Part shown: positions 1 to 35,580 of the stretch, one piece after another
How the letters are laid out: each line of letters begins with the position of its first letter
How positions within the stretch are numbered: the stretch's first letter is position 1
From: a virus
Taxonomy: Duplodnaviria > Caudoviricetes
Virus record (IMG/VR): IMGVR_UViG_3300044681_000033
Span: 1 to 35,580 of that record
Direction: 5' to 3' (one strand)
Length of the DNA stretch: 35,580 bases
Notes under the pieces: model-generated
What the model saw: the letters and a program-made list of their open reading frames with translations, nothing else
Databases searched by the model: none
Told to the model about the DNA's origin: nothing
Made by a program: the position numbers and the translations under genes

Positions 1-129
1 CTAAGGCCGATTTTTTTGATCTTTTCTTCACGGATTAGCCTGTTCAAAATTTGATACATACCAGACTTGTTATGGCCTGTGAGATCCATAATCTCAGCCG
101 CAGACATACTCCTCGTAATTATCTTTTCT
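1..129. repeat. Terminal overlap, left copy (matches 35452-35580); circular/permuted genome of ~35451 bp
   Basis: Positions 1-129 equal 35452-35580 except position 3 (a) vs 35454 (g). Confidence 0.95.
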
Positions 130-149
130 ATTTCTGAGTCACGCTTCAT
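1..149 (-). CDS. 5' part of a winged-helix-like protein that continues across the circular junction to 35238
   Basis: ATG at 149 with GGAGG RBS at 154-158; reads MKRDSEIEKIITRSMSAAEIMDLTG, in frame with ORF 35238..35558. Confidence 0.75.
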   Translation of the reverse strand, partial: MKRDSEIEKIITRSMSAAEIMDLTGHNKSGMYQILNRLIREEKIKKIGL

Positions 150-162
150 AAGCCCTCCTAAA
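145..162. repeat. 18-bp direct repeat, copy 1 (TTCATAAGCCCTCCTAAA)
   Basis: Exact match to 747-764; on the - strand it reads TTTAGGAGGGCTTATGAA (RBS+ATG). Confidence 0.95.
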
Positions 163-751
163 CGGTATCCGCGATAATAATTTTTCTATACTGCTCTAAA
201 GATTTGCCCCTGTTAAAGCCAGTAATAAGGCCAGTCTGTTTATTTTTTCTCCAGATAGTTGCGTTTGTCTTTCCAACAGCAGGCTCCATACCAACCGTTT
301 CAAATAATTCTGGCAGCAATTGTTTTCTCCAGACATTGATCTTCCTCATCCTTCTAACGCCACCATCTACAATTGCGACAACCTCATACCCCAACGCTTT
401 CCAAAATTTATTGGCATCAATATCGAACCCGCAACGCAAAGAAACAGATGTTGCGTGACCTTCGTTTGCGTACTCCTCAAGAGCAGCAACTAGAGCAGCA
501 CCATAAAGTTTCAGCCTAGCATCGTATTGAATACAAACTTGATGGCATTTCACCGTATGTCCTTGCGCCCCAACATAGATATACCCGCATGGTTGACCAT
601 TTAATAACCCAAGAAAAAGCCTCCTCTTTTCTTTTTCGCGTTCAAAAACTTGCTTGGGATAAAAAGACAATGATTCAGCGTTTTTCTTTTGTAAGAAATC
701 AATGTAGACCAGCATATCTGGGTGGTCTTGCACCACAACAAAATCATTCAT
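158..751 (-). CDS. GNAT-family acetyltransferase
   Basis: GNAT motif A-like QVCIQYDARLKLYGAALV and motif B-like ANKFWKALGY; strong RBS; AT-richer than the rest of the genome. Confidence 0.8.
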   Translation of the reverse strand: MNDFVVVQDHPDMLVYIDFLQKKNAESLSFYPKQVFEREKEKRRLFLGLLNGQPCGYIYVGAQGHTVKCHQVCIQYDARLKLYGAALVAALEEYANEGHATSVSLRCGFDIDANKFWKALGYEVVAIVDGGVRRMRKINVWRKQLLPELFETVGMEPAVGKTNATIWRKNKQTGLITGFNRGKSLEQYRKIIIADTV

Positions 752-1049
752 AAGCCCTCCTAAATTTAGCCAGCTTCTCCTCGCTTGGCGTTGGTCTGTA
801 AGTTAATTGTGGTGAGTCAAAATACTGTGGAGCCTTCTTGCAAAGTTCTTTGAACTGTATAAGGTTGGGTGGGCGTTCTCCAAGCATACTCAGGCCGTAT
901 TTGATCTGTTCTACAGAATAGCCGCGCAATTCGTCTGCCCACGCACCCTTTACTTCATCCAAAGGCATACCATCAAACTTGCGAGTCCACTCCTGACCGT
1001 AGACAACTAACATCTTGTTCCACAGCGCATCTATCGCGGATAGGTTCAT
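744..1049 (-). CDS. Replication protein P-like (helicase loader/initiator partner)
   Basis: Directly downstream of the initiator with ATGA overlap; YG..W...W...L.......I..GL......PPNL.QF..LC pattern of phage P-like proteins. Confidence 0.65.
   Translation of the reverse strand: MNLSAIDALWNKMLVVYGQEWTRKFDGMPLDEVKGAWADELRGYSVEQIKYGLSMLGERPPNLIQFKELCKKAPQYFDSPQLTYRPTPSEEKLAKFRRAYE
747..764. repeat. 18-bp direct repeat, copy 2 (TTCATAAGCCCTCCTAAA)
   Basis: Exact match to 145-162. Confidence 0.95.
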
Positions 1050-1768
1050 AGGATCATCAACCTTTCTACAGGTTGCCCAGGTTCAGGCCACTTTCTCCCT
1101 GTCATCTCTTCCCATTTCTTTCGTTTGGCAAGCTCATCTCTTTCCGCGAATGTTAACAGTTTATCCTGCGGCTTGTCTTTCACCCACTCAGCCTTAAACC
1201 CTCGCCAACCACGAGCCACAATCTCGGAAAGGGCGTTCTCTAAAGACCAGCCCGCAAGATCAGCTTCCTTCTGGATTGTCTTTATAACCGTCTCAGTTAC
1301 TACTGCCCGCGCCTTTTGTCTTTGCTGAAGAAAAGAGTCCCATACCTCTGAAGACACGCCTTCAGGCGCAGGTAGTTTTTTTATTGGTTTATGGTTATTG
1401 GTTAATGGTTGTTGGTTATTGGTTGGTTGAACGGTCGTTGAACGGTCGTTAAGCCTTCGTTCAGCAGACGCTTTACCAGCCCTAGAAGCCGCCTCAGACT
1501 TAGACCTAAAATGCGCGATTTCTTTTTCTGCCCGCTTGCTTATCCAGCCAGCATCTTCAAGAACGAAAAATGTCTGCAAAACAAACTCAACAGAGTCTTT
1601 GTGTTCTGCCATTCCGATCTGTCGTGCAACGGTCGTTGAACAGGCGTTGAACGGACGCTCGTGCAGATAGTATTCGTCTAGCAATCTGCGGTAAGCGAGG
1701 TCTTCTAAGAGGCTAAGATTTCGGGTATGACTAGCGTAGTCACCGATATTAAATTGATAGTAGTGCAT
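1046..1768 (-). CDS. DUF1376/YdaU-family phage replication initiator
   Basis: N-terminus MHYYQFNIGDYASHTRNLSLLEDLAYRRLLDEYY is typical of DUF1376; internal iterons; ATG at 1768 preferred over the upstream TTG at 1774. Confidence 0.85.
   Translation of the reverse strand: MHYYQFNIGDYASHTRNLSLLEDLAYRRLLDEYYLHERPFNACSTTVARQIGMAEHKDSVEFVLQTFFVLEDAGWISKRAEKEIAHFRSKSEAASRAGKASAERRLNDRSTTVQPTNNQQPLTNNHKPIKKLPAPEGVSSEVWDSFLQQRQKARAVVTETVIKTIQKEADLAGWSLENALSEIVARGWRGFKAEWVKDKPQDKLLTFAERDELAKRKKWEEMTGRKWPEPGQPVERLMIL
1381..1470. promoter_or_regulatory. Probable replication origin: six 7-bp TT(A/T/G)(T/A)TGG repeats followed by four 11-bp iterons
   Basis: ttattgg/tttatgg/ttattgg/ttaatgg/ttgttgg/ttattgg at 1381-1422; ttgaacggtcg x2, ttaagccttcg, ttcagcagacg at 1427-1470; lies inside the initiator gene like lambda ori in O. 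Confidence 0.7.
1625..1657. repeat. Second iteron cluster (3 x 11 bp)
   Basis: tgcaacggtcg, ttgaacaggcg, ttgaacggacg in tandem; same consensus as 1427-1448. Confidence 0.7.
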
Positions 1769-1770
1769 CA

Positions 1771-1901
1771 CCAATTCCCTTTAGGTCGACCCGCATGAAG
1801 TGGAAATCCAGCGGGAGGCCTACATTGCGTAAAAAACTGGCAGCGGGCCGATCTAAAAGGAACTGGCTAACTGCCTCCACTTTTGTGCTTTCCACGGCAC
1901 A
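1771..1901 (-). ncRNA. Candidate cis-regulatory 5' leader RNA of the initiator (24-bp RBS-sequestering stem plus loop-loop pseudoknot)
   Basis: Arms 1843-1866 and 1771-1794 pair on the - strand with 3 G-U pairs and 1 mismatch; the loop of hairpin TGTGC-CGTGGAAA-GCACA is complementary to TTTCCAC (1800-1806) inside the large loop. Confidence 0.65.
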
Positions 1902-3648: not shown

Positions 3649-3819
3649 ATGGACTTGACCGTTCACAACACAGAAGAATTGTGCTTAGTTCAGCACCGCA
3701 AAGATGGTAGCCAGAGCAACTACACAACGCTTGTTATCAAGCATAAAGATGGCGAGTTGCGGATAGATATGTTCAGCAAAGAACCACTCACATTTACACT
3801 AGGAGAATCAGATGACTAA
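3649..3819 (+). CDS. Small hypothetical early protein (56 aa), not in ORF track
   Basis: GGAGG at 3636-3640; MDLTVHNTEELCLVQHRKDGSQSNYTTLVIKHKDGELRIDMFSKEPLTFTLGESDD. Confidence 0.65.
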   Translation: MDLTVHNTEELCLVQHRKDGSQSNYTTLVIKHKDGELRIDMFSKEPLTFTLGESDD

Positions 3820-4321
3820 TGGCAAAGTGAACATCCACGGCAAAGAATACTCAACCGTAGCCTACCGTATACACCAGTTTCGTAGCGACCATCCCGACTG
3901 GCAGATTCATACTGAGGTCATTGAGTTGGACGCAGACCATGTTGTCATGCGCTGTGACATCTGTGATGCCGCTGGTGTCCACCAGGCTACAGGCCACGCA
4001 CTAGAGACCCGCAACGCCTCTAAGATGCACCAGACCAGCTATGTCGAAATAGCGGAGACGAGTGCTGTCGGTAGGGCTTTAGGATTCTTGGATTATGGCT
4101 CTCAGGAAATGCAGATCGCTTCTGCGGACGAGGTTATCGCGGCAATCTCCAGCCAGTCTGACCCGCGAGTAGAAAAAATGACTAAAGCAGTTATGGCTTG
4201 CACGACATTAGATGAACTCAAGATTGTCTGGGGCGGGATGAACGAGAAGGACAGGAAGGTTATGCAGGAAACTTTTACTAAGAGAAAGGAAGAAGTATGT
4301 CGAACCACGGAGCAAATGTAG
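3812..4321 (+). CDS. Rad52/Sak-like single-strand annealing protein
   Basis: GKEY..VA.RI..F and AETSAVGRAL motifs; same operon as the YqaJ exonuclease and SSB-like gene. Confidence 0.65.
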   Translation: MTNGKVNIHGKEYSTVAYRIHQFRSDHPDWQIHTEVIELDADHVVMRCDICDAAGVHQATGHALETRNASKMHQTSYVEIAETSAVGRALGFLDYGSQEMQIASADEVIAAISSQSDPRVEKMTKAVMACTTLDELKIVWGGMNEKDRKVMQETFTKRKEEVCRTTEQM

Positions 4322-4789: not shown

Positions 4790-4982
4790 AATAAAGTTAA
4801 AATGTGAGTCGCCCGAGGAAGCCGCGATGTACCTAGAAGCTCCCAGGGTACGAGGTGGGCTAGATTCTTATGCTTACTGGCTGCGGAGTAAGATTAAACA
4901 CGCAGACCTGTCGCCAGAAGTATTGGCGTTTGCAGAAGAAGCCCAAAAAGAGTTTTACGAAAACTTAGGAGAAATGTTGTGA
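4782..4982 (+). CDS. Hypothetical protein
   Basis: Operon-embedded ORF, GTGA overlap with the exonuclease gene. Confidence 0.65.
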   Translation: MIEIKLKCESPEEAAMYLEAPRVRGGLDSYAYWLRSKIKHADLSPEVLAFAEEAQKEFYENLGEML

Positions 4983-5608
4983 GAGAAGAAAACAAGCTGC
5001 AAGGCACAGGTGCTTGGCATAACCAGAGGTGCGGGAAGGCCACAGCTAGTCGCGCAAAGGCCATAGTAAAGAAGCTCAAGAATGGGGATGATTCCGCAGA
5101 GCGTAAAGCCCTAAAGGTAGAAATCCTGTGTGAGCGTCTTACAGGCGATGTGGTGGACAAGTTCGTTACTCCCGCCATGACACGCGGTATAGAGGAGGAG
5201 CCGCGGGGCAAGGAAGCCTACGAACTCAAGACTGGTCGTCTAGTAAAGGACATTGGTTTTGTAGATCACCCGCGCATAGAGTATTGCGGGGCCAGCCCTG
5301 ACGGTCTCGTGGATGACGGTCTTATTGAGATCAAATGCCCCAACACTACGACTCACATAGGGTGGGTGCTTGCGGGTGTCGTTCCTGAAGAACACAAACC
5401 CCAGATGATCTTGCAATGCGCCTGTACGGGCCGCAAGTGGGTAGATTTCGTTTCCTACGACTCTAGGCTACCAGAGGCCCAACAACTCTTTATAAGGCGT
5501 TATACGCCCTCTCAAGAGGAAATAGACTGGTTAGAAGAGGAAATAACCAAGTTTCTGGCTGAAGTTGACCAGATGTTTGACCAACTAACACAAACGGAGA
5601 TGCTATGA
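4979..5608 (+). CDS. YqaJ/lambda-exonuclease family recombination nuclease
   Basis: QGT..W...R.G..TAS, AM.RG.E.EP, GASPDGLV, IEIKCP, Q...Q motifs. Confidence 0.92.
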   Translation: MREENKLQGTGAWHNQRCGKATASRAKAIVKKLKNGDDSAERKALKVEILCERLTGDVVDKFVTPAMTRGIEEEPRGKEAYELKTGRLVKDIGFVDHPRIEYCGASPDGLVDDGLIEIKCPNTTTHIGWVLAGVVPEEHKPQMILQCACTGRKWVDFVSYDSRLPEAQQLFIRRYTPSQEEIDWLEEEITKFLAEVDQMFDQLTQTEML

Positions 5609-5868
5609 GCTACGACAACACCAACAGCGGGATGCTGGCCCGCAACGATAGGAAAGAGAAAGACACCCATCCCGATTTCAAAGGGGCTATAAATGTAGAC
5701 GGAAAGGATTACTGGCTGAGTGCCTGGGTGCGGGAAGGCAAGCCTGGGGGGAAGATGGAGGGCAAGAAATACTTTAGCCTGTCTGTAAGCCCGAAAGAGC
5801 AAGCTCCTGCGCCCAAACCTAAAGCAACATCGTTCGACCAACTGGATGACGATATTCCAGCTTGGTAG
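5605..5868 (+). CDS. DUF736-like putative single-stranded DNA-binding protein
   Basis: N..K....HPDFKG.I.VDG..YWLSAW...YFSLSV core and SSB-like acidic tail LDDDIPAW. Confidence 0.7.
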   Translation: MSYDNTNSGMLARNDRKEKDTHPDFKGAINVDGKDYWLSAWVREGKPGGKMEGKKYFSLSVSPKEQAPAPKPKATSFDQLDDDIPAW

Positions 5869-7448: not shown

Positions 7449-7829
7449 TTATACCTCAACGGCTACCCAAGAAGTTGTGGCCTCGTCCCAAGAATACATC
7501 TTAGGAGGCTCACCCGTACCAGCGTCTTCAGGCATTGCTACTGGTGCTTCCCATTGTGCCAAATCGGTATTAAGAATCCAAGAGTTAAAAGGCTTGGGAG
7601 GAACAAAAGCATCAATGTCGGCGTTGTAGGTGTAGCCGATCCCCGCATAGTTCTTGCGGATGTTGCCGTTGTAGCTGGTCTGCTTCCAGTTTCCACCAAA
7701 GAGCTTTTCTAGGAAGGCTTGACCAATGTATTCCTTTTCAACACCGTTAGCGTCAGAAGTGTCCTTGTTAGCGACCACATGAACCTCAGTCACTACATTG
7801 TTTTCATCCAGTTTTGCAAAGTGCGCCAT
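7449..7829 (-). CDS. Conserved tail-fibre-associated protein (chaperone-like)
   Basis: MAHFAKLD, WKQTSYN..RKNYAGIG.TY....DAF.PPKP..SW, WEAPV.MP motifs common downstream of Gly-rich fibres. Confidence 0.65.
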   Translation of the reverse strand: MAHFAKLDENNVVTEVHVVANKDTSDANGVEKEYIGQAFLEKLFGGNWKQTSYNGNIRKNYAGIGYTYNADIDAFVPPKPFNSWILNTDLAQWEAPVAMPEDAGTGEPPKMYSWDEATTSWVAVEV

Positions 7830-7831
7830 GT

Positions 7832-8443
7832 TTATTCCTTTACAGATTCAAGTTTAAGTCCAGTTAAATCCATTTCTTCTCCAACAACACCAACTGGGAA
7901 AGTGTTGAAAGAAAGACTGATCCTTGTCTGATCGCCCTGCACAGTTTCAACCATGTGAGTAAGTGACGATGGGAAAAGAATCAGATCACCCGTACCGACT
8001 TCAAACCACCAGCTTTCAGAGTTCCAGACATTCCACTCCTCTGGCGGTAGCTTAATCATCTGGAAGCCATCACGGTAGAAATAAATCTTGTCCGTCTCTT
8101 TGTTAGCTTGCGGATAAAAGACACCTGATACAAACGAATTAGGGTGTGCGTGTTTGTGATGCCATTGCCCCGGCTCGGTGTAATTGCACCAGCTTTGTGT
8201 GATGCGGAGGCTTACATTGTGCTTGGGGTTATGGATCGACTTAAAGTAATCCGCAACAGATGTCTCAACAAAGTCCCGCAGTTTGGTTAACTCTTTGTTC
8301 CGCAGGATGGTGTTGTCCTCTGAGGTCGTATTGCCCTGATTAGGCCGAGTCTTCTGGCCCTTGATAAACCCAAGTTCTTTCTCGGTCAGGTCACGATCCA
8401 GCTTGTAGATGCCAACAGGTGTGGGGAATAGGTTGTGAATCAT
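7832..8443 (-). CDS. 2OG-Fe(II) oxygenase, TIGR02466-like
   Basis: LFPTP, SWCN, H.H.H.NS..SGVFY, GDLILFPS.L.H.V, RISLSFN; start MIHNLFPT at 8443. Confidence 0.85.
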   Translation of the reverse strand: MIHNLFPTPVGIYKLDRDLTEKELGFIKGQKTRPNQGNTTSEDNTILRNKELTKLRDFVETSVADYFKSIHNPKHNVSLRITQSWCNYTEPGQWHHKHAHPNSFVSGVFYPQANKETDKIYFYRDGFQMIKLPPEEWNVWNSESWWFEVGTGDLILFPSSLTHMVETVQGDQTRISLSFNTFPVGVVGEEMDLTGLKLESVKE

Positions 8444-8685
8444 GCGGCTTCCTTGGGTTGGCCTGTCAGTTCTGCCCATTGCTCGGGCAACCAGATGGTG
8501 TTAATGGATTCTTCAAACGCCTTAATCTTTTCCATCGTTGCGTCTATTTCTTCCCAAGACGGAATCGGTCTAGGGTCATCCCACCGGGTAATAATCCGAT
8601 TTGAGACTTCCCATTTAGCGCCGGGGCGAAGTAACTCCATCGCCGTGTTGATGCCGTAAAGCCTGAAGATCTTTGCGTCTGACAT
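8440..8685 (-). CDS. XkdW-like small tail-fibre-associated protein
   Basis: A...LRPGAKW.......W.DPRP.PSWEEI pattern; directly follows the fibre gene. Confidence 0.55.
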   Translation of the reverse strand: MSDAKIFRLYGINTAMELLRPGAKWEVSNRIITRWDDPRPIPSWEEIDATMEKIKAFEESINTIWLPEQWAELTGQPKEAA

Positions 8686-8698
8686 TAACTCTCCTTTT

Positions 8699-11600: not shown

Positions 11601-11965
11601 CCACCGCCAGTAGAAGTGATTGTGCTGAAAACAGAATCTGATCCATTGTTTCCTTGAAACGCTGATGTGCCAACTGATGCCCCGCCTGCACCAACTGTAA
11701 CCGTGTAAGAAGTTCCAGCTACAACAGCCAAAGCAGTTCCTGTGCGGAAGCCACCTGCACCACCACCCCCACCACCACCAGATGTTGAGCCTACATTTAC
11801 TGAACTACCACCCGAACCACCACCGGCAACAACCAAATACTCCACCTCTGTTACACCCGCAGGGCATACCCATGTCGTAGAAGAAGTAAAGGTCTGGATG
11901 ATTGTGTAGGGGCCAGCACCACCCGGCTTTAAGAACCCTAGTAAAGCATTAAGAATACCTGTCAT
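8699..11965 (-). CDS. Glycine-rich tail fibre/adhesin with four tandem ~260-aa Gly-rich domains
   Basis: Four units, each opening F....W..P.G...V.YLVV.GGG and closing NTGGGGG...GGSG.V...; Trp codons at ~11871, 11088, 10320 and 9489. Confidence 0.85.
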   Translation of the reverse strand: MTGILNALLGFLKPGGAGPYTIIQTFTSSTTWVCPAGVTEVEYLVVAGGGSGGSSVNVGSTSGGGGGGGAGGFRTGTALAVVAGTSYTVTVGAGGASVGTSAFQGNNGSDSVFSTITSTGGGGGGKDQLNGSSGGSGGGAGGGPAATTGGTGTAGQGNDGGDSDNIVSAGGGGGGGAGSAGSDVTTNAGGNGGSGLTSTLSGSTLPYAGGGAGAGGSTGQPGGTATDGGGNGGTYNPTTAGSNGTANTGGGGGGGAETSISGAGGSGIVIIKYTVTPATTVDVVQQFNADGTWTCPAGVTEVEYLVVAGGGGGGTDGGGGGAGGFRTGTGFSVTAGTDYTVTVGAGGTAPSGAGNNGSNSVFSTITSAGGGGGGTYAPNGTGKNGGSGGGGGDGPGGSGNTPASASPPDTNATQGNNGGSGISVPNNQRFGGGGGASQAGENYDTDGPSHGGDGGNGSVSTISGSSVTYAGGGGGGSYAGTAGSGGSGGGGAGSTGSSAATSGIVNTGGGGGGSAAFGGGGGTGGSGVVLLKYAVPLSTVETFKSSTNWTAPVGVNYVDYLVVGGGGGGSGSGGQGGSGAGGGAGGFRTGTGLAVTSGTSYSITVGAGGAGGQGGPSGGDGASGIVGSNSVFSTITSAGGGYGALGGGTGTVGGNGGSGGGGGGTGFGGPGTGGTGNTPASSSPPDTNATQGNNGGNGAGAPNYGSGGGGGASNTGGNATTTTGGNGGNGSVSTITGSSVTYAGGGGGSTYNGGTAGTGGTGGGGDAGSASAGIAGTANTGGGGGAGGTNGSFPADVGGGSGGSGIVILKYLSKPNYQIFQADGSWTCPAGITEVEYLVVGGGGSGGAGIGGVGGAGGGGAGGYRTGTGFSVSAGTTYSITVGAGGTGPTSGNPGSNGSNSIFSTITSAGGGAGGSATSATYDNGSAGGSGGGGQVVGGGPTATGGAGNTPSVSPSQGNNGGDAPLSAPGYGGGGGGGASATGSNGSGSAGGNGGAGAASTISGLSVTYAGGGGGGVYQNLATGGSGGAGGGGAGATGQAGNGWTTPAGTAGTVNTGGGGGGGASNANNGNTGSAGGSGGSGIVIIRW

Positions 11966-27490: not shown

Positions 27491-28747
27491 TTACACAATC
27501 CAATTAGTTTTGATGTTTATGGGTTTATCCCAGGTAGAGTTTGTCTCTATGCCAAGCGCGAGGTAACGAAACGAGTCTGCACCGTGACTTGACCAGTCGT
27601 GAAGGGGACGAGCAAAGAAAACTTGTCGCTTCTCATCAAACTCCCTCCTGTAATTCCGCAGGCAGTCCAAACCCTGTTTTACCGCAGGTAGACTGAACCA
27701 GCACCTCGGCAAGAGCCTTCTAACGGCCTGTATGCCATCGTCTACATTTAGCCTAGCCACCACCGTACAATCTAAGCCAGCCTCTCTGAGGACTTCTAAA
27801 CGGCTTTTGCCTGTGGTTAGCTCTCTGACCTGCACATCGTGTGGAAGTAAGTGAGTGGCCTTATGCCAGTCTCTATGCGTTAACTCCCGCACATACCAAT
27901 CTAAACCCTGACCGTGGTTCTCAATATAGTCAACAAGCCTAACTTCCTGACCCGCGACTTGAGCAATCCATATTGCCGTAGAGTCGCCCATCCCCAGATC
28001 CCACGCCGCAAAGGTTTTGCAGAGGTCGTCCCTTGGGATTTCCTTATAGCGTTCTTCTGGGAGGTCGTTAAGAATCTGCCCGTAGTAAGAACCCTCAACC
28101 GCAGCGGAAAACGAACACTCAAACTCTTGAGCGTACTTATCATCCCCCATCTCTCGCTTTGCCGCCTCAAGCTCGGCTTGGTCAACGATGCCAGTCTGCG
28201 AAGCCTTAAACTCCAGTAATGACCACCCATCTTCCGTCTCGGCACGATCTCTTAGCTCTTTGAAATGGTTAGCACCCTTTGGGGTTCCGATAAATAACGC
28301 CCATCCCTGCCTATCCGTAAGCGCAGGTCTTATGATCTCGTTCCAGATCTTAGGGTTCATATCCCCTACTTCATCCAGAACCACACCGTCTAAATAGATG
28401 CCCCGCAAGCTGTCGGGATTGTCTGCACCGTAAAGTGAGATGCGCCTACCTAGAAAGTCCACCCGCAGTTCACTAATGTTGACCTTGGGTTCTAAAGGCC
28501 TCGTGTAATGCGTTAAGTAATCCCAGGCGACTCTCTTGGCTTGCGTGAATGTGGGCGCGATGTAGGCATAGCGAGGATTCTCCCGTCCGCACAGCACCGA
28601 AGCCTTAATAAGCTGGTTGATTGCCGAAACTGTCTTGCCAAACCTTCTATGGCAGACTGCAACTGAAAATCTGTGAGTATCAACTGCCTCATGGATCGCA
28701 AGCTGTTTCTCCCTCGGCTTGTAAGGAATCGTGACTACTTTATCCAT
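27491..28747 (-). CDS. terL: Terminase large subunit
   Basis: Walker A HRRFGKT, Walker B VVLDE, GTPKG coupling motif, nuclease WDLG...D and SHGADSFRY. Confidence 0.95.
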   Translation of the reverse strand: MDKVVTIPYKPREKQLAIHEAVDTHRFSVAVCHRRFGKTVSAINQLIKASVLCGRENPRYAYIAPTFTQAKRVAWDYLTHYTRPLEPKVNISELRVDFLGRRISLYGADNPDSLRGIYLDGVVLDEVGDMNPKIWNEIIRPALTDRQGWALFIGTPKGANHFKELRDRAETEDGWSLLEFKASQTGIVDQAELEAAKREMGDDKYAQEFECSFSAAVEGSYYGQILNDLPEERYKEIPRDDLCKTFAAWDLGMGDSTAIWIAQVAGQEVRLVDYIENHGQGLDWYVRELTHRDWHKATHLLPHDVQVRELTTGKSRLEVLREAGLDCTVVARLNVDDGIQAVRRLLPRCWFSLPAVKQGLDCLRNYRREFDEKRQVFFARPLHDWSSHGADSFRYLALGIETNSTWDKPINIKTNWIV

Positions 28748-29022
28748 CCAACCCCAATGTTGAGAGGCTGATCTGGGTCGCCCACCACCTTCTGCTCTAT
28801 CGGAGCCAGCCTAGAGTAGAACCTGTAAAACTCTGTCTGATTCTTGGGGTCTGACTTTGCCCAGTTGACCATCTCTTCTAGTCCACCTAGCTCATCAAAG
28901 ACCGCAACGATGTTCTCTTTTACTTGCTTGGGGATCTTATTAGTCGCCCCTTTGGGTCTACCTGCTCCTGCTCTGGAGCCGCCCCAACTTGATTTTGCTT
29001 CCTCTAAATTTTCATGTTCCAT
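28735..29022 (-). CDS. terS: Terminase small subunit
   Basis: GG.R.GAGRPKG..NK DNA-binding motif; overlaps the terL start. Confidence 0.8.
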   Translation of the reverse strand: MEHENLEEAKSSWGGSRAGAGRPKGATNKIPKQVKENIVAVFDELGGLEEMVNWAKSDPKNQTEFYRFYSRLAPIEQKVVGDPDQPLNIGVGWIK

Positions 29023-29052
29023 TTGTCGAATCCTCTACGGGGTGTTCGTGAT

Positions 29053-29068
29053 GTTGCTATATTACAAC
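29053..29068. promoter_or_regulatory. GTTG-N8-CAAC operator upstream of terS
   Basis: gttgctatattacaac; same palindrome as 3274-3289 and 5868-5883. Confidence 0.55.
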
Positions 29069-29071
29069 AGT

Positions 29072-30349
29072 TTATTTCGGACTGTATAACCAGTAAGTTG
29101 GTGAATACTTCCTAAAGCTACTTCCTGGTACTGTTTCGCCCGCAATCGGTTCTTGCTTCTGAAACCCTAAACGCTCATAAAAACTTACCAGTCTTTCAGG
29201 GTCTACATTCTTAGCAATGTTGGGATCTGGGATAAGTCTGATCTGCTTGCCAGTCTGATCCGCATAATCTATTAAGTCTTGCATAGCTTCTGTGCCTAGA
29301 CCCTTACCCCTTTTTGGTACTTTTATCAGGCCAACATCTATAAGGTTGCCAGACTCAGATACTTGTAAATCTATATTCTTACTTTGTGCTTTTTCAACAA
29401 TCGACTGTAGATTTACACTCTGTGCTGGTTGGTCTAGGAGGCCAGCCATTTGCTCATCACTTAGTGCAGACCGAATGTTTTGCTTATCAAAAGCCACATA
29501 AATGTCAGATGGTTCTAATGCCTCATCTGTTGAGAACCTACCCGCAGGGCCGTGATCCACAACATTCCTAACAACAAGACCGTCATACCCTTGTTGCTTT
29601 GCATACCGCGCAAGATCGTCTGTAGAGGCGTAGTCGTCTACATACCGCAACTCATCGCCAAAAATCCTACCTAGCGTAGTTTGTTTAGCATCAGGCAAGT
29701 CCACCTTTGCCTTCTTGTTTAACCTATTCCAGTTTGCACCTTGAGCATCTACAACCATTGGCCTCTTGAAGTCTAAGTAGGCAGGGATAACATTAGGAGA
29801 CTCACCAAGAGCGTAAGTTGACGCTGTATATGGGTTGGAAGAAAAGAAAGTGCCACTACCCGCAGATTTGCCAGAAGCCATCGTAGGATCTAACTGGTCA
29901 ATCTCTTTGCCTGTGGCGTGATACGCAACAATGGGCTTATTGGTGTCTGATACCACCTTAGTCTCAGGTAACACCCTAGCCGCAATCTCTGGGCTAATAG
30001 CACCCGTAGGAGGTTCTGTCTGTATCTGCCGCACTAAGTCCTGTATGCCCCTAGATGTCGGTCTAGCCGCAGGCGCACCAAAAGGAATCATCCCCGCTAT
30101 GTCTGCTAGGTATTCCCTGTCCGCAGTAATGGGGATGTTGGACTGCATGGGCATCCTAAACAGAGGATCACCATAAGACATCTTCTCTACTGTTTCCGCA
30201 GAGGGAAGCATAAGCTGGCGAACCAGACCCATAACATCTAACTGGCGAGGCAAGAACTCTGGAGCCGCAATGTCGCCCTCTGTAGCCCGTAGCATATTCG
30301 CTAACTGGCCTAAGAGCCTATTCTGTTGCGGTGCGGTAAGTTCAGCCAT
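29072..30349 (-). CDS. Polyvalent-type protein: ART-PolyVal-like ADP-ribosyltransferase domain plus C-terminal GNAT domain
   Basis: AYHAT, G.FFS....AS.YA, V.PAYL....P, GYDGL...N, YVAFD..NIRS (ART-like); RGKGLGTEAMQDL...AD and LVSFYERLGF (GNAT). Confidence 0.75.
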   Translation of the reverse strand: MAELTAPQQNRLLGQLANMLRATEGDIAAPEFLPRQLDVMGLVRQLMLPSAETVEKMSYGDPLFRMPMQSNIPITADREYLADIAGMIPFGAPAARPTSRGIQDLVRQIQTEPPTGAISPEIAARVLPETKVVSDTNKPIVAYHATGKEIDQLDPTMASGKSAGSGTFFSSNPYTASTYALGESPNVIPAYLDFKRPMVVDAQGANWNRLNKKAKVDLPDAKQTTLGRIFGDELRYVDDYASTDDLARYAKQQGYDGLVVRNVVDHGPAGRFSTDEALEPSDIYVAFDKQNIRSALSDEQMAGLLDQPAQSVNLQSIVEKAQSKNIDLQVSESGNLIDVGLIKVPKRGKGLGTEAMQDLIDYADQTGKQIRLIPDPNIAKNVDPERLVSFYERLGFQKQEPIAGETVPGSSFRKYSPTYWLYSPK

Positions 30350-30884
30350 TTCCTTTTACCAAAATAACAGACATGGAATCTACAGCCCTCGGGGTGTAAG
30401 GTAACGCCTCCGCAGGGACATCCATGTCAGGGTTTGCGTTGAAGACAAGCTCTTTCATGTAGAACCTGTCCTTCCAATTGAGATACCAATGCCAGTCCGT
30501 ATAGTAGAGCCAGCTTCGTTCATTAAATGCCCGCACATGAGTGGGGTCTTGCCACGCACCAAAACTGAGGTCATACGGCACATGGATGTGAAACTCGCCA
30601 CCATCCCGCAGTAAATCCTTGCAGTTGGTCATCGCCTTGACTAAGTCGGGAATATGCTCCAGAACATCGTTGGCAATGATCTGGTCGAACATCCCGCGCT
30701 CTACTGTAAATATACCCAGTCTCGTGTTGAGCTTTTCACCCCAAGGTACATTCTGAATGTCTAGCACCCAGTCTGGGTTCTTCTCTGGCTGGATGTCCGC
30801 ATTGAGACAATCCTTGCGCCAGTCTTTACCAGACCCGAGGTTAAGAATCTTTGGGCTTGTATCGTGCTTTGAGTCTTGCGCCAA
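30342..30884 (-). CDS. Class I SAM-dependent methyltransferase (small-molecule/glycan type)
   Basis: ILNLGSG motif I, NAD, DVLEHI, LL..GG...I.VP, DPTH.R.F; start codon uncertain. Confidence 0.85.
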   Translation of the reverse strand: MAQDSKHDTSPKILNLGSGKDWRKDCLNADIQPEKNPDWVLDIQNVPWGEKLNTRLGIFTVERGMFDQIIANDVLEHIPDLVKAMTNCKDLLRDGGEFHIHVPYDLSFGAWQDPTHVRAFNERSWLYYTDWHWYLNWKDRFYMKELVFNANPDMDVPAEALPYTPRAVDSMSVILVKGNG

Positions 30885-31185
30885 GGGCTTTTAGCTCTCT
30901 GAGGTCGTCTTGGTTCTGGGGAACTTTTGCTGCCCACCTTTTGAATTGGAGAGCCGCTGGCGTTGGTTCGCCCTTATCGTTTTTGAGTGGATGGCCCGCT
31001 GTGATCGCTTGCGCGGCCTTTCGGTAGATGAATTTGGCTCTATCGTACTTGTCAGCGGTACTTGCATTTTTGGTGCTACGAACTGGCTTACGGACTGAGC
31101 CACCCTCGCGATTGTGTTCAGCCATCGCAGATGTAGTCTTACGATCATACTTCTCAAAGATTTTAGCTGCATCTCGTACCTTCAT
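30841..31185 (-). CDS. Basic hypothetical protein
   Basis: K/R-rich ORF, PLKNDKGEPTPAAL..KRW motif; ATGA overlap with the upstream gene. Confidence 0.65.
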   Translation of the reverse strand: MKVRDAAKIFEKYDRKTTSAMAEHNREGGSVRKPVRSTKNASTADKYDRAKFIYRKAAQAITAGHPLKNDKGEPTPAALQFKRWAAKVPQNQDDLRELKALGARLKARYKPKDS

Positions 31186-31343
31186 TTTTTCTTCTTCTTT
31201 TTCTCAGGTAGCCCTTTCATCGAACCCATGTCCGCAGTAAATTCTTTGGCTACTTTCTGAGAAATACCAGTTTCCTTGGCTAACTTAGGATTGTTGGCAA
31301 CCGCATACATCAGCCTTGCTTGGCTACGACTGGTGGGAGGCAT
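31182..31343 (-). CDS. Small basic protein (53 aa), not in ORF track
   Basis: MPPTSRSQARLMYAVANNPKLAKETGISQKVAKEFTADMGSMKGLPEKKKKKK; ATGA coupling to the next gene. Confidence 0.7.
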   Translation of the reverse strand: MPPTSRSQARLMYAVANNPKLAKETGISQKVAKEFTADMGSMKGLPEKKKKKK

Positions 31344-31521
31344 TTTTTAACCTTTCCTTGACTTGTAGGCATTGGCCCGCAACCGTTGTCTCAGGGTGCG
31401 AGTCGATAATCTCTATGACTTTTGCAACCGCCTGAATACAGTCTTTCTGGCTGTTATATGCGGCATCCGTCCAGAATTGACAAGAACCAGTCGCGCAGAA
31501 AAACACGACTGGCAGCCACAC
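31324..31521 (-). CDS. Small Cys-containing, possibly exported protein (65 aa)
   Basis: GTG at 31521 overlapping the upstream TAG; MWLPVVFFCATGSC...C...QC pattern. Confidence 0.55.
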   Translation of the reverse strand: MWLPVVFFCATGSCQFWTDAAYNSQKDCIQAVAKVIEIIDSHPETTVAGQCLQVKERLKNASHQS

Positions 31522-31853
31522 TATTCTTCTTCTTCCATCGAGTCCCAAGCATCGCAGACATTCTTTTCCGCACACTTGAACTCAAAGATGTCGCAGAACA
31601 CTTCGCCTTTCTTAAGGCCGCAACCCTTCAGCTTCATGCCGTATTCACAGTTGCCGCACATCTTTTCATCTTCCGCAGGGCCATAGCTTGCGGTAAGGAT
31701 AGCTTTCTGTTTGTTGCCCTTGTTGACAATCTCATCCTGTGCCGCAAGTGGACACTCGGACATATCATCCTCTAACAGGGAATCAGCTTCTTTACCCATC
31801 TGCTTACCTGGGCCAAGTAAGCCAATCATTACGGTAATGCCTTTGTCCTTCAC
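31521..31853 (-). CDS. Cys-rich putative metal/Fe-S-binding protein
   Basis: CGNC...C...FCDIFEFKC.....CDAW; GTGA overlap with the upstream micropeptide. Confidence 0.65.
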   Translation of the reverse strand: MKDKGITVMIGLLGPGKQMGKEADSLLEDDMSECPLAAQDEIVNKGNKQKAILTASYGPAEDEKMCGNCEYGMKLKGCGLKKGEVFCDIFEFKCAEKNVCDAWDSMEEEE

Positions 31854-31900
31854 TTCTTCTTACCTTTCCCAGGCATGGGCTTTTTCTTTTTGCCGTACAT
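31850..31900 (-). CDS. 16-aa Lys-rich micropeptide
   Basis: TAAGGAG RBS 6 nt before ATG; MYGKKKKPMPGKGKKK; its stop overlaps the next start (GTGA). Confidence 0.6.
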   Translation of the reverse strand: MYGKKKKPMPGKGKKK

Positions 31901-31947
31901 GGTTGGCTCCTTACGAAATTTTAGGGTAGACTTCCCCGCCTTTTAGT

Positions 31948-32292
31948 CTAGTCGTTTTTCAACTTTCTCGCAACCATTTCGTGCGCTTTTTGAAGCTCGG
32001 ATTTGTACCTGTCTGTGCTGATCCTGAGACGCTGTGCAATGCTGTGTTCAGAATGGTAGGGATACTGGACATAGGCGGCCTTGAGTACGATTCTCGAAAA
32101 ACTAGGAAGATTTCTGACAATTTCCTCCACCCTTTCCGCAGCCAAGGCATCAGGCTCGTATCTAGCTTCCTGTCCTTCCCAGATTTCCTCGGAAACATAA
32201 TTACCCTCCGCAGATGCGGCTTTATCTTGCACAGGTGGGCCAACATACCCTGCCAGCCACCAACTCCAGTTCTTTAACTCGTCTTGAACCAT
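31948..32292 (-). CDS. Q-like late antiterminator/activator
   Basis: L.NW..W N-terminus, VE..V..LP...R.VLK..Y and C-terminal HTH (IAQRLRIS...Y..EL); sits just before the late/packaging genes; ATG at 32292. Confidence 0.6.
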   Translation of the reverse strand: MVQDELKNWSWWLAGYVGPPVQDKAASAEGNYVSEEIWEGQEARYEPDALAAERVEEIVRNLPSFSRIVLKAAYVQYPYHSEHSIAQRLRISTDRYKSELQKAHEMVARKLKND

Positions 32293-32957
32293 GTTGCCGC
32301 AAGTTCTGGTCTGTTGGCTTGTATCCAAGGCTTCGCGTCCTCTATGCATTGCTTAAAGTCTGACCCGCAGGTCTGGCTCCCGACATGGTGGACATACGAT
32401 CTGGAAATATAGTGCTTGCCACCCGTAGACTGTAAGTCGAGGCATTGAATATCGTCTGAAAACCAGTTCAAGGGAGGGAAATTTATCCAAGCGTTCTTGG
32501 TTATGTGAGCGAATATCGGGGCTATGACATCCACCTCAATAATGGAATCTTCTGAGGCATGGCGTATGGTTCCATTCCTGTCTCCGTCTTGTTGATAGCG
32601 GATGTTCTGCATCCCCCTGGCGTAGTCAGATCGAGCAGCAACCCAACAACGGTTTTTCTCTGGGATGATCTTCAGGTCTTCAGCCATCATCTGCCAGGTG
32701 TAAGGCGTAAGAACTACATCATCGTTACAGACAATAATGTCCTCGTGACCATCCTCAAAAGCCTGTAATGCCACAGCATTGTAGGCATCCCCAAAGTTGT
32801 CCGCAGTATTATCACTTGTGATAGTCCTATGTTTGGGCATGATCATGCCCGAACCTGAGATATAGACTGTAAAAAACTCAGGTAAGTAAAAGGTTATGCT
32901 TGCCGCAAGCATTGGTAAGCATTTGCTGTTCTTTGTGGCTATGACTATCGCGGACAT
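32274..32957 (-). CDS. Glycosyltransferase, GT-A fold (GT2-like)
   Basis: NFG.AYN, IVCNDDV, WFSDD..C, YVHHVGSQT motifs. Confidence 0.8.
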   Translation of the reverse strand: MSAIVIATKNSKCLPMLAASITFYLPEFFTVYISGSGMIMPKHRTITSDNTADNFGDAYNAVALQAFEDGHEDIIVCNDDVVLTPYTWQMMAEDLKIIPEKNRCWVAARSDYARGMQNIRYQQDGDRNGTIRHASEDSIIEVDVIAPIFAHITKNAWINFPPLNWFSDDIQCLDLQSTGGKHYISRSYVHHVGSQTCGSDFKQCIEDAKPWIQANRPELAATWFKTS

Positions 32958-33559
32958 ATTTTGTAGCCCTCCCCTCTGTGGCCTGTGTTTAGCTGAACCA
33001 TGTTGCTAGGAAACGAGCAAGGCAGGTCGTAAATGGTCTCTTTATGCTTCCACAGGACATAGGGAAGCGAAATCTGGTCTTGGAATGACCACTTGTTGAT
33101 TTCTGTCCACCAGTCCTCGTTTATCTCTTTACCCCACCGTGACCGCGCAATCATCGTGCAGGCATATAACCCAAAGTTCTCTGGAAAGCCCTCAGAACGG
33201 TAGTGAGCCATCTGCTCTCGTGTCGGGCAGTTGTAATACTTCTTCATGTCCTGGGCGAACTCAGCCTCTTTATAGGCGCATTGCCTGTTGGGATGTCGGA
33301 ATATCGCCCACTTGTCTTTAGCCGCATCCACGCACCATTTGGCAAAGTGAGGCGACTTGATACGAACAGATGAGTCTATCCAGATGGTGTAGTCGTAGTC
33401 TTCAGACGGATGGAGCTTGTACCATTTGGCCTCCAACATCGAACTCATGCCAAACTGGGGTTCCTCGTAATACTTAAAGTCTACGGGAATGCTCTGCTCT
33501 GTATGGGCATGGCGATGGTCATACCCGCCCACATTTGCGGAATAGATTAATACCGACAT
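32945..33559 (-). CDS. DUF616 (TOD1/MUCI70-like) glycosyltransferase-domain protein
   Basis: IYSA..GGYD, K..K..P, IWIDSS, F.HP.R.C.Y.EA, WW.EI....QDQISLPYVLWK motifs. Confidence 0.8.
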   Translation of the reverse strand: MSVLIYSANVGGYDHRHAHTEQSIPVDFKYYEEPQFGMSSMLEAKWYKLHPSEDYDYTIWIDSSVRIKSPHFAKWCVDAAKDKWAIFRHPNRQCAYKEAEFAQDMKKYYNCPTREQMAHYRSEGFPENFGLYACTMIARSRWGKEINEDWWTEINKWSFQDQISLPYVLWKHKETIYDLPCSFPSNMVQLNTGHRGEGYKICPR

Positions 33560-33750
33560 AAATAGAAGTATTCCTGCTTCGGGCCTTTTCCTGTGCGGTC
33601 TTTCTTCTCTCGGTTTACATATCCCCTGTTCCAGCAGTAAAGCAGCGTGACTTTTACCAACTGTTTAGGCATCTCAAGTAGGGTCGCAATCTCGGTTGCG
33701 CTTCTGGCCTGATCTCTACAGGCGTTCATAACTCGGTCTTTGTTGCTCAT
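33547..33750 (-). CDS. Small winged-helix DNA-binding protein
   Basis: SATEIATLL...V...L......GYV.R....G.GP...Y.Y pattern; GGAG RBS. Confidence 0.7.
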   Translation of the reverse strand: MSNKDRVMNACRDQARSATEIATLLEMPKQLVKVTLLYCWNRGYVNREKKDRTGKGPKQEYFYLCRY

Positions 33751-33759
33751 CGTTTCTCC

Positions 33760-33785
33760 AAAAAAAAGCCCGCGAGTGGCGGGCT
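33760..33785 (-). terminator. Intrinsic terminator
   Basis: AGCCCGC-CACTC-GCGGGCT stem followed by a run of T on the - strand. Confidence 0.85.
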
Positions 33786-33831
33786 AACCCCTATGACGGG
33801 GAGGAGGAGAAATGCCTCGGAGGTTGAGGCA
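33760..33831 (-). ncRNA. Candidate ~72-nt anti-Shine-Dalgarno sRNA/leader
   Basis: Extended -10 TGCTATTCT at 33837-33845; hairpin TGCCTC-AACCTCC-GAGGCA, linker TTTCTCCTCCT, hairpin CCCC-GTCATA-GGGG, then the terminator. Confidence 0.55.
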
Positions 33832-33868
33832 CACTCAGAATAGCACACCACTTCGTTAAACAGTATAC

Positions 33869-34183
33869 CTAAGAAATGTCCACCAGTTTGTGAACCCACC
33901 TGTTATCTTTCTTCTTCCAGCCTATAACCCAGATATTCCAATTGGCTTTCCTGACTGGGCCTACGGTATCGGATTCTTCTATCTTTCTTACCCTGCTAGA
34001 AATGTTGTCCCAACTCGTACATTGCACCGCAACAGTTTCACCATCTCGGATAGCTACGATGTCAGTCCACCCCCACAGGTCTTTCCTGATGTTCGCCCCT
34101 GGTATCCACTTTTCCACTACCTCGGCTAGATAGCCCTCCTTTTTTAGCCAAGCCAGAGATAATTGTGTTGGGGACATAGCCAT
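33869..34183 (-). CDS. PD-(D/E)XK-fold nuclease (resolvase-like)
   Basis: L...GY....VE.W, DLWG..DIVA.......VQ.TS motifs. Confidence 0.65.
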   Translation of the reverse strand: MAMSPTQLSLAWLKKEGYLAEVVEKWIPGANIRKDLWGWTDIVAIRDGETVAVQCTSWDNISSRVRKIEESDTVGPVRKANWNIWVIGWKKKDNRWVHKLVDIS

Positions 34184-34286
34184 AGATCACCTTAAAACAA
34201 GGGTTGCAGTATTTTCTTGCTCGTGCCTTGCGGATTCTGCCCGCACATCGTTTGCAGGTCGTCCACTTATGTTTTAGCTCGTACAT
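34062..34286 (-). CDS. Possible small zinc-finger protein
   Basis: CKRC...CNPC pair in the part that does not overlap neighbours; the tail overlaps the nuclease gene. Confidence 0.4.
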   Translation of the reverse strand: MYELKHKWTTCKRCAGRIRKARARKYCNPCFKVIYGYVPNTIISGLAKKGGLSSRGSGKVDTRGEHQERPVGVD

Positions 34287-34563
34287 CCACTAACCCCCTA
34301 TCGAACAGTTCAAACATCGTTTTTCTCCAAGCCCGCAGCCATAGTTCTTCTCTTTCCCACTTAGCCAGATCCTTGCCAGAATCGACCATTGCGTGACAGG
34401 AAATGCACAGCGCACAACTATATACATCGTGTGCCTTAAGGCCCATGCCTTTTCCAGACCAAGACCCCCAGTTAGCGTGACTGGCCTGAGTCTGCCCCTC
34501 TATACCGCAATGCTGGCAGGGCAGAGAGGCAACGGCTTTTAGGAGTTTAGGGTTGCGATACAT
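34267..34563 (-). CDS. DUF1364/Ref-like HNH-type Zn-binding nuclease
   Basis: R..KLL..V..LPC..CG....QASH.N....KGMGLKA.D...ALC..CH..VD. Confidence 0.8.
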   Translation of the reverse strand: MYRNPKLLKAVASLPCQHCGIEGQTQASHANWGSWSGKGMGLKAHDVYSCALCISCHAMVDSGKDLAKWEREELWLRAWRKTMFELFDRGLVDVRAKT

Positions 34564-34993
34564 TCCTAGCCTTTAGTTCGGCCTCTATAGCCCTGGCAAA
34601 GATCATCGCGCAATTCATATCAAATGTTCCGTCATCCACGCACTCGCAAGTCATACCCATGATCTCAACATCATCAAGCCCGACCCATTTTCTTTTTTTC
34701 CTGCGTGGCTCTGAGGATGGTTTGCCGCCAGTATTAGGAAGAACTCGGTAACGATATAAACCGTCTTTAACCATCTCGCGCTCTACTTCGTAGCCACCAA
34801 AGCGAGGCTTCCGCAAGTGCCTTAGTTGTGCGCTAATGCTTGCCTCTGGGTCTCCAGTTTTTGCCGAGATTTCAGCAAGCGTTTTCCACCTTCCGCTTTT
34901 AACAACATCCCAGATTCTTAGAAGTTGCCCAGTAAGGCGTGGATTGTCCCTTTCGGGAACATAGTCTGCACCAGCAAATTTGTATGCTTTCAT
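34547..34993 (-). CDS. Winged-helix protein fused to a WVGL-type phage C-terminal module
   Basis: W.TL.EI...TG.PEASISAQLR.LRK.RFG wHTH, then KWVGL...EI...FARAIEA.LK.RN. Confidence 0.65.
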   Translation of the reverse strand: MKAYKFAGADYVPERDNPRLTGQLLRIWDVVKSGRWKTLAEISAKTGDPEASISAQLRHLRKPRFGGYEVEREMVKDGLYRYRVLPNTGGKPSSEPRRKKRKWVGLDDVEIMGMTCECVDDGTFDMNCAMIFARAIEAELKARNVSQP

Positions 34994-35238
34994 TTTTTAC
35001 TCTCCTCGTGTTCTATCAGCTTGTTTAGGAAGTGTCGGCATTTGTAGAGATCCTCCAGCCCGTTCTTATTCTTCCAGCGGGAAATGTATTTAATTACCGA
35101 GCCTTCCATGTAGCCAAGCTCGTTAGCCAAGACATAATCCCACGGTTGTATCGTGAGGCGTTTATAGTGCTGACCGCCTATTTGCCCTTCGTTCGCAGGT
35201 TCTTTCACAGCCACAATTGTTGGTTTTCCAGTCTCCAT
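34990..35238 (-). CDS. DUF3310 (SaV-like/T7 gp1.7-like) protein
   Basis: QIGG.HY....IQPWDY......Y.EG.VIKY.SRW..KNGLEDL.K..H.L. Confidence 0.85.
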   Translation of the reverse strand: METGKPTIVAVKEPANEGQIGGQHYKRLTIQPWDYVLANELGYMEGSVIKYISRWKNKNGLEDLYKCRHFLNKLIEHEESKK

Positions 35239-35404
35239 CAGGCTCCCCGTATCTGAATAAAATTGAGTCCCTTATCTGCTGCCGCAGCACCTTGCATTGT
35301 TCCGTAACGAGAATTCTTAGTCTGCATCGCCCGCAGTTTAGATTGAATACGCCTATGCTTTCGCAGTCCAGACAGGTTGAAGGGGTCTGCGGAGAAGTAT
35401 TCAT
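35162..35404 (-). CDS. Cys-rich putative zinc-binding protein, entirely overprinted on its neighbours
   Basis: MNTSPQTPSTCLDC...CGRCR...QCK...CGCERTC; ordered CxxC/CxxC/CxCxxxC pattern. Confidence 0.5.
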   Translation of the reverse strand: MNTSPQTPSTCLDCESIGVFNLNCGRCRLRILVTEQCKVLRQQIRDSILFRYGEPDGDWKTNNCGCERTCERRANRRSAL

Positions 35405-35580
35405 CTCGTTTGTTGGAGATGGGTTTGTCAGAATATCCAGTTGGGGCGTATCTGAGGCCGATTTTTTTGATCTTTTCTTCACGGATTAGCCTGTTCAAAA
35501 TTTGATACATACCAGACTTGTTATGGCCTGTGAGATCCATAATCTCAGCCGCAGACATACTCCTCGTAATTATCTTTTCT
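35238..35580 (-). CDS. 3' part of the winged-helix-like protein that starts at 149 across the junction
   Basis: MSAAEIMDLTGHNKSGMYQILNRLIREEKIKKIG HTH-wing pattern; stop overlaps the DUF3310 start (TGATG). Confidence 0.7.
   Translation of the reverse strand, partial: EKIITRSMSAAEIMDLTGHNKSGMYQILNRLIREEKIKKIGLRYAPTGYSDKPISNKRDEYFSADPFNLSGLRKHRRIQSKLRAMQTKNSRYGTMQGAAAADKGLNFIQIRGA
35452..35580. repeat. Terminal overlap, right copy
   Basis: Matches 1-129 with one mismatch. Confidence 0.95.

Follow-up and report, generated by a model that had tools for sequence, protein, structure and literature searches.

The stretch analysed here, called the window, is the whole of the IMG/VR record IMGVR_UViG_3300044681_000033 (35.6 kb, estimated to be 100% complete), and the element in question is the pentamer TGCGG, read as CCGCA on the other strand, which is dispersed over its entire length. 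The window is a complete podovirus with a lambda-like gene order, interrupted by one short opposite-strand module at 3.4–5.9 kb; genes were found for the terminase, portal, scaffold, capsid, ejection proteins, an O-like initiator, a P-like loader, an exonuclease, a single-stranded DNA-binding protein (SSB) and lysis. On the minus strand, a family match identifies the O-like replication initiator (DUF1376, 1046..1774), and a weaker one the P-like helicase loader (744..1049). A probable origin lies within the initiator gene (1381..1659), marked by iteron-like direct repeats of 11 nt and AT-rich repeats of 14 nt; its repeated unit differs from TGCGG. The plus strand carries a probable single-strand annealing protein with a dsRBD-like fold (3812..4321), which we take, from its position and family features, to be of the Rad52/Sak type, followed by a RecE/YqaJ-like recombination exonuclease (4979..5608) and the SSB (5605..5868). 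The large terminase subunit is encoded at 27491..28747 (minus strand), and a small open reading frame (ORF) upstream of it (28735–29022) is, by position, the probable small subunit. Family scans covered 53 ORFs against PHROGs and 30 against Pfam and gave no match to integrase or DNA methyltransferase families. The three best-matching metagenome runs are of freshwater origin and perhaps contain the source of the record; relatives are present in runs from freshwater and from an estuary sample.

The initial annotation of this DNA had counted about 175 CCGCA and about 55 TGCGG on the plus strand, and the exact numbers are 176 and 54. The 176 copies that read TGCGG on the minus strand (98..35553) lie on the late-gene strand, which is the 'top' strand in lambda orientation, and the 54 copies on the plus or 'bottom' strand (1..35580) are densest from the tail and lysis genes to the initiator gene. 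Four of the five example sites given there are exact or within one base, and the one placed near 21986 is actually at 21996. The roughly 5-fold excess originally claimed for CCGCA holds against base composition (36.5 CCGCA and 29.0 TGCGG expected; 4.8-fold) but not against a protein-preserving null, for which the enrichment is about 3.5x sense and 2.1x antisense. The coding strands of 54 curated ORFs hold 177 copies of TGCGG, against 51.1 expected under synonymous-codon shuffling (z 19.4; maximum of 200 shuffles 66), so that the excess survives the codon-shuffle test named beforehand as one that could refute it, and it ranks first of the 1,024 pentamers, the next non-overlapping word reaching z 7.5. 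As had been proposed, the word is raised in all three reading frames (14/27/136 observed vs 8.7/4.0/38.5 expected) and also antisense (50 vs 23.6). A shuffle that in addition preserves the first base of the next codon leaves 177 against 77 (maximum of 300 shuffles 98), and a dicodon-chain estimate for the main frame, 107 against the 136 observed, absorbs much of the excess but not all of it. Words with a single mismatch, whose equal enrichment was the other refuting outcome named beforehand, are far rarer (CCGCT 32/18, CCGCG 26/15, ACGCA 32/39). A maximal-order Markov model ranks CCGCA first when the plus strand is scored (z 6.8) and, with both strands together, second (z 7.5) behind ACGCT/AGCGT; fitting all 512 pentamer pairs jointly suffered from collinearity and gave no information.

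The excess extends to the 1,158 non-coding bases, which hold 6 sites against about 1.5 expected. Alanine codons illustrate how the word is accommodated within genes: in a T_G context GCG is chosen in 136 of 238 cases (57%), against 0–31% in the other 15 contexts. The enrichment in every frame, antisense and between genes, together with an orientation that depends on position and on gene direction, bears out the proposal that the word is selected at the DNA level through synonymous codon choice. Sites are spaced in a random-looking manner (mean 155, sd 162), irregularly and without clustering. The longest site-free gap, 1,348 bp at 14519..15867, is probably due to chance, since about 3.3 sense sites are expected in the gene at 14560–15654 and its homologs carry 4–10. 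The major capsid gene (23203–24165, minus strand) is poor in sites, with 2 against about 6 expected, and its relatives have 1–4 in sense; this suggests that the demands of translation override the word in the most expressed gene.

In order to define the word, 201 kb of word-positive genes were pooled and compared with 348 kb of genes from word-negative relatives. The observed/expected ratio (O/E) of TGCGG is 3.14 in positives vs 1.02 in negatives in sense and 2.07 vs 1.41 antisense, the pooled counts in positives being 968 observed and 309 expected; word-negative relatives thus have a mild antisense excess of their own. Among the 15 single-base neighbours only CGCGG is clearly, if weakly, raised (1.03 vs 0.45), and positions 2–5 are strictly GCGG. 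AGCGG is lower in positives (0.65) than in negatives (1.02), and just one of the 16 TGCNN (NNGCA) words rises relative to control phages. An apparent secondary preference for TGCGC, TGCGT and TGCTG disappeared against control phages. The flanks had been described as varying freely, which is correct for the following base, whereas a pyrimidine precedes 168 of the 230 window sites; in the pooled set the preference for a pyrimidine is mild (3.6–3.7 vs 2.0–2.7).

The polarity was reported as about 139:25 (CCGCA:TGCGG) at 12–35 kb and 17:17 at 1–6 kb, and recounting gives 137:24 and 17:17. As most genes lie on the minus strand, much of this polarity tracks gene direction. We fitted a codon-choice model to 320 pooled genes, after 35 near-duplicates had been dropped; its standard errors are too small, the relatives being non-independent. 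The log-likelihood is −69304 for a gene-sense term, −69326 for a genome-strand term, −69416 for one symmetric term and −69277 with position terms (four more parameters), and the pooled log-odds are 1.77 sense and 0.70 antisense. Three zones can be distinguished. From 11975 to 28700, over the ejection, neck, head, portal and terminase genes of the minus strand, 101 top sites face 16 bottom sites, a ratio of about 6:1, and the pooled log-odds are 1.75 and 0.36. From 1046 to 11974, over the initiator, the opposite-strand module and the lysis and tail genes, the orientations are about equal (33 top and 29 bottom sites; log-odds 1.42 and 1.46). The region between the replication genes and the terminase (28701..35580) has the strongest top-strand preference of the three, with 39 top and 9 bottom sites and log-odds of about 2.07–2.08 and 0.95. 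Among genes of the same direction, the bottom-strand (antisense) log-odds are 1.43 from the tail genes to the initiator vs 0.36 in the late core, and in the opposite-strand module the top strand still has 0.96. In finer bins the top strand reaches 2.0–2.4 between origin and terminase, and the bottom strand 1.4–1.5 left of and at the origin, against −1.1 to 0.65 in the late genes. Both gene direction and position thus contribute to the polarity. The preference for the top strand extends over nearly the whole genome, and the bottom strand is preferred over about 11 kb next to the origin.

The word is confined to part of the relatives. It leads the pentamer ranking in 13 of 80 capsid-related loci and in 3 of 83 loci of the exonuclease set (80 loci and three GenBank phages), and 14 of 49 initiator-related loci combine an O/E of at least 2.4 with TGCGG or CCGCA as top word, although five of these appear to be one phage. 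Over 212 non-independent loci, 27 are clearly positive, 19 intermediate and 166 negative. In a capsid tree, a quick version without bootstrap that kept 85 of 88 rows, the positives form two adjacent groups, both well supported, one of 11 rows and one of 4, so that on this tree the word marks two neighbouring capsid lineages. The loader has 69–98% identity in word-positive loci vs 23–44% in negatives.

Relatives whose fourfold-degenerate positions are about 50% identical have roughly half of the sites in common with the window (49 of 105 in the case of G047); density is therefore kept while positions turn over. In alignments of 88–100% identity, changes within the word context affected GCG in 4 of 102 comparisons and the T in 0 of 68; outside it the figures were 20 of 148 and 63 of 661, respectively, and all these counts are pseudo-replicated. 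Counted per unique site, GCG changed at 11 of 55 vs 25 of 67 matched synonymous positions (p 0.046) and the T at 4 of 35 vs 66 of 256 (p 0.089). Metagenome contigs showed abundant variants in all four runs; the 40 variants covered, of about 1,630, are a sample too small to test for selection. The tail module (7449..11965, minus strand), which encodes a 2OG-Fe(II) oxygenase and a glycine-rich repeat protein of 1,088 aa, has a counterpart only in G061 among 20 records compared; it is probably a recent import, because all 13 CCGG sites of the genome sit there. It already holds 13 TGCGG and 11 CCGCA, and the homologous, shorter ORFs (2.9 kb) of the word-negative G061 hold 0 and 3. We regard TGCGG as a real, selected and lineage-bound signal.

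Other words dominate elsewhere among these phages. A group of phages (G058–G060; L109, L213–L215) has an excess of GCGGGT (38 vs 9) together with TGCGG, which in G060 lies mainly in the final genes of the late operon. GCGGG and GCGGGT are also among the top leading-strand-specific words in the bacterial genomes G001 and G005, possibly a phage-host match of a Chi word. Further phages with O-like initiators (L252–L257; L263–L265; L258; L266; L250) have dominant words of their own, namely TCTGT(T) (46 vs 5 as hexamer), CGTTA (123 vs 51), GCCGT, CGTTC and TGCGT, in which repeats are possibly included.

What might read such a word? The initial annotation had offered, among other candidates, a Chi-like site of a host nuclease, and this stays the best reading, even though the sole host candidate neither over-represents nor skews the word: we put it at somewhat less than an even chance that TGCGG is a Chi-like site of a host AddAB-type enzyme. 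Replication would start from the origin in the O-like gene, and free ends would arise from packaging cuts, rolling-circle tails and broken forks. A host AddAB-type helicase-nuclease would stop degrading such ends at TGCGG and hand them over to recombination; sites on the top strand would meet an enzyme that comes in from the right, as does active Chi in lambda, and those on the bottom strand to the left of the origin would be of use to forks moving leftward. The AddAB Chi words that have been tested are AGCGG in B. subtilis, GAAGCGG in S. aureus and GCGGTGGT in C. crescentus (PMC4614115, 10.1101/2021.07.08.451572 and PMC5443536, each available in part), and the B. subtilis enzyme is described in these portions as reading each of the five bases. 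The Chi-like reading is favoured because the strict GCGG core is shared with all three words and because of the five-base length. TGCGG resembles them in being short, asymmetric and strand-biased, with five bases like the B. subtilis Chi; it differs in its first base, T, AGCGG being below expectation here (0.65), and in that a host chromosome with the word was looked for and not found.

It is favoured further because orientation and peak region resemble those of Chi in lambdoid phages that have a recombinase and lack an inhibitor. In the parts available of the study by Bobay et al. (PMC3784561), Chi is concentrated between origin and terminase in lambdoid phages, and the recombinase-positive, inhibitor-negative ones have a median Chi O/E of 2.5. 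With Chi-rich lambdoids (PMC3784561; LLS and MD8, PMC12315714; both sources available in part) the window phage shares the lambda-like order, an enrichment of about 2–3.5x mainly on the late-gene strand and a peak between origin and terminase; family scans found no inhibitor in it. It is distinguished from them by a pentamer in place of an octamer, about 230 sites genome-wide rather than 20–50, enrichment of the second strand as well, the lack of a detected integrase and, relative to LLS and MD8 as there described, the possession of a recombination module. Two further grounds are that neither Gam, Abc2 or Mu-Gam families nor a Toprim primase found a match, and the signs of selection, that is, GCG in T_G contexts, the retention of sites and the presence of the word in a probably imported module. 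Calibration on two phages only points in the same direction: AGCGG, the Chi of B. subtilis, stands at 1.7x in SPP1 (rank 7 of 1,024) and at 0.81x in phi105, which is annotated with a Mu-Gam-like gene. Through most of SPP1 (L507), AGCGG lies on the top strand, but bottom-strand copies predominate (14 vs 5) in the initial 4 kb, next to the terminase genes. Finally, a preprint, available in part, proposes that phage end-binding proteins which block RecBCD expose phages to Gabija; this would explain why a phage might depend on mimicking Chi instead.

Several observations weigh against the Chi-like reading. An exonuclease, an SSB and a probable annealing protein are encoded by the phage itself (3812–5868). 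According to the accessible parts of Zheng et al. (PMC12315714), phages with recombination proteins and an inhibitor mostly lack Chi, and the Chi-rich class lacks such proteins; the same Gabija preprint also names, in the part available, exonuclease and annealing pairs like that of the window phage as sensitising. Small, fast-evolving inhibitors can escape family scans such as those in which Gam, Abc2 and Mu-Gam gave no match in the window. Both orientations of TGCGG are enriched; a pentamer occurs by chance about once per kb and strand, so that the gain from tripling it is uncertain. The gene-sense model alone fits better than the genome-strand model alone, and there is no clean switch at the origin, because just left of it the top strand still has 2.21 vs 1.36 for the bottom. 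A word-negative lineage (G071, L064, L072, L073) enriches words with a GCGG core in the opposite orientation, CCGCC, CCGCA and CCGCT being raised on its coding strands (2.9x, 2.2x and 1.7x).

The host side adds to these objections. The sole lead, a weak one, is a 1.9-kb phage contig, with a capsid gene 89% identical, in a metagenome-assembled genome (MAG) titled 'Bordetella sp.' (G001), and its presence there may be due to co-binning. A capsid-protein scan of the species genomes gave 9 loci, one of them close; a genus-wide DNA search returned only this contig and two 31-bp matches, neither of them in CRISPR arrays, and the loader protein was matched in 0 of 59 family genomes. In the MAG, TGCGG is neither in excess nor skewed (leading 1.02, lagging 0.98; 436 kb), and two complete congeners have leading/lagging values of 1.03/1.02 and 1.31/1.21, the second mildly raised. 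A noisy screen of 401 genomes of the same order, comparing TTGCGG with the reversed word, yielded nine high-ratio genomes, picked by eye, which had no excess in samples of 4–49 kb. PD-(D/E)XK matches were obtained in 38 of 41 genomes around G001 and none in G001 itself; many lie in adjacent frames of about 900 and 1,100 aa, which are presumably addAB gene pairs. The enzyme of the candidate host has no PDB match against which residues that read Chi could be checked.

Words known from other bacteria were compared with the signal. The E. coli Chi GCTGGTGG (10 top-strand copies) and the Caulobacter word GCGGTGGT (9) are not shared by relatives, 7 of the 10 and 6 of the 9 copies lying in the glycine-rich gene, with about 5 expected for each word, and the Chi-like proposal for Ralstonia, cGCCGAAc, as given in the part available of PMC2013936, does not match TGCGG. 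The Pasteurellaceae uptake signal sequence AAGTGCGGT (PMC5217627, available in part) contains TGCGG; its nine-base core has 0 copies in the window, where a pyrimidine and not G is preferred before the word.

Among the other explanations, the one that survives best, which we consider somewhat improbable, is that a host or phage DNA-binding protein or translocase, not a resection nuclease, reads TGCGG with partial strand preference, for coating, ejection, packaging or the evasion of defence. It would suit a word that is strict, lineage-bound and enriched on both strands, the failure to find a bacterial chromosome with the word (G001, its congeners and the nine genomes followed up from 401), the several small window ORFs without a family, and the concentration of the word in the last late-operon genes of the G060 lineage. 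The irregular, unclustered spacing speaks against it, as does the distribution of candidate proteins. Two ORFs resembling winged helix-turn-helix (wHTH) proteins, in which a coating protein had initially been sought, are not in all near-complete positive genomes: that at 35238–35558 has no tblastn match in the word-carrying G056 (97% complete) and G051, and that at 33547–33750 none in G051. The only small ORF present in all three near-complete positives (4577–4789) has a hydrophobic start and looks membrane-bound. A GNAT acetyltransferase encoded downstream of the loader gene (158–751, minus strand) was rejected as reader of the word, as its gene occurs in 0 of 38 related records. Another gene with a GNAT-like domain, here fused to an ADP-ribosyltransferase-like ART-PolyVal domain, lies just upstream of the terminase genes (29072–30349, minus strand) and is also found in G047, G056, G046 and G061.

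It is unlikely, though less so than the explanations that follow, that TGCGG/CCGCA is a priming signal of the host DnaG on the lagging-strand template of forks starting in the O gene. Chi and priming sites share the same strand relative to forks, and the peak of bottom-strand sites left of and at the origin (1.4–1.5), with low values in the late genes (−1.1 to 0.65), is in keeping with it. The host primase would serve the phage, since initiator and loader are present and no phage primase was found: none appeared among the 53 window ORFs scanned, and a Toprim primase (Toprim_2) in 0 of 4 phage records searched, which speaks against a phage primase as reader of the word. Primase sites are likewise dispersed, strand-biased short words (GTC for T7, GCA for SP6), and CCGCA ends in GCA. 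DnaG-type primases, however, read a three-base core, yet the other 15 NNGCA words are not enriched over controls in the window lineage; a priming word should also skew in the host chromosome, which it does not in the candidate G001, and a sharp switch at the origin is missing. A search of the literature on primase words and on AddAB Chi in Betaproteobacteria found nothing specific.

We think it quite improbable that TGCGG is recognised by a DNA methyltransferase or subject to biased mismatch repair, accumulating by protection or by mutation. The window strongly avoids a number of words (ACGT 0, CACTG/CAGTG 0, CGACG/CGTCG 0, AAGCTT 0, TGCGCA 0, GGWCC 2, CCGG 13; CATG, GCGC and TGCA are also low), and because many of these are of restriction type, modification systems are probably abundant in the host population. 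Against a modified or repaired target stand the C-to-T neighbours of CCGCA (TCGCA, CTGCA, CCGTA), which are not specifically depleted relative to control phages, and the position-dependent polarity, for which a target modified on both strands gives no reason; nor did any window ORF scanned match a DNA methyltransferase family. Less probable again, by a little, is a signal acting in mRNA (UGCGG) or a codon-pair preference. The sense excess over antisense and the 136 of 177 sense sites in one frame, of which the dicodon chain accounts for 107, would favour it, but enrichment in all three frames and antisense, the change of antisense log-odds with position among equally oriented genes (1.43 to the left of the origin vs 0.36 in the late core) and the poverty of the major capsid gene do not.

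The avoided words also bear on whether the excess could be a by-product. Loci such as L027, L031, L039 and L045 have zero ACGT and zero CCGG and yet no TGCGG excess, and word-positive loci retain ACGT (L004–L006, L008, L040, L041) or CCGG (L014): the excess is independent of restriction-site avoidance. Of 80 viral loci listed for three close TGCGG copies, one was dropped for too little coding DNA, and only 2 of the remaining 79 reach 2x, both with z < 3, so the null does not inflate TGCGG generally. Although 4-mer terms and the avoided words together cut the motif coefficient from 2.16 to 1.44 in sense and from 1.02 to 0.28 antisense, these comparisons largely refute an origin in restriction-site avoidance or base composition, which we hold to be very improbable.

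Thus, TGCGG resembles a working Chi site on the evidence of sequence but cannot be filed as one. That phages accumulate Chi is already known; TGCGG is not among the words given in the papers cited here, and our searches of the open-access literature brought up no publication that connects TGCGG or CCGCA with phages or with Chi. Only a few bacteria have a known Chi-like word, and a search by computation, as far as the part available of 10.1101/2020.08.13.249359 indicates, found none for most Proteobacteria. If TGCGG is the Chi of the host, selected by this lineage, the present analysis names a specific five-base candidate that is testable in one assay, and phage sequences could by themselves be used to read Chi words and perhaps to point to hosts. 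A bolder version, which we consider doubtful, is that enzymes of the AddAB/AdnAB type widely share TGCGG as a stop word that has so far gone unrecognised, on which phages of very different hosts have converged, and that phages reveal the Chi of their host even without over-representation in the chromosome; the GCGG-core words of neighbouring phages (GCGGGT, DGCGG) would then form a readable catalogue of the Chi variants of uncultured bacteria. Should the word prove not to be Chi, the choice among synonymous codons throughout the genome has been shaped by a different machine that reads sequence.

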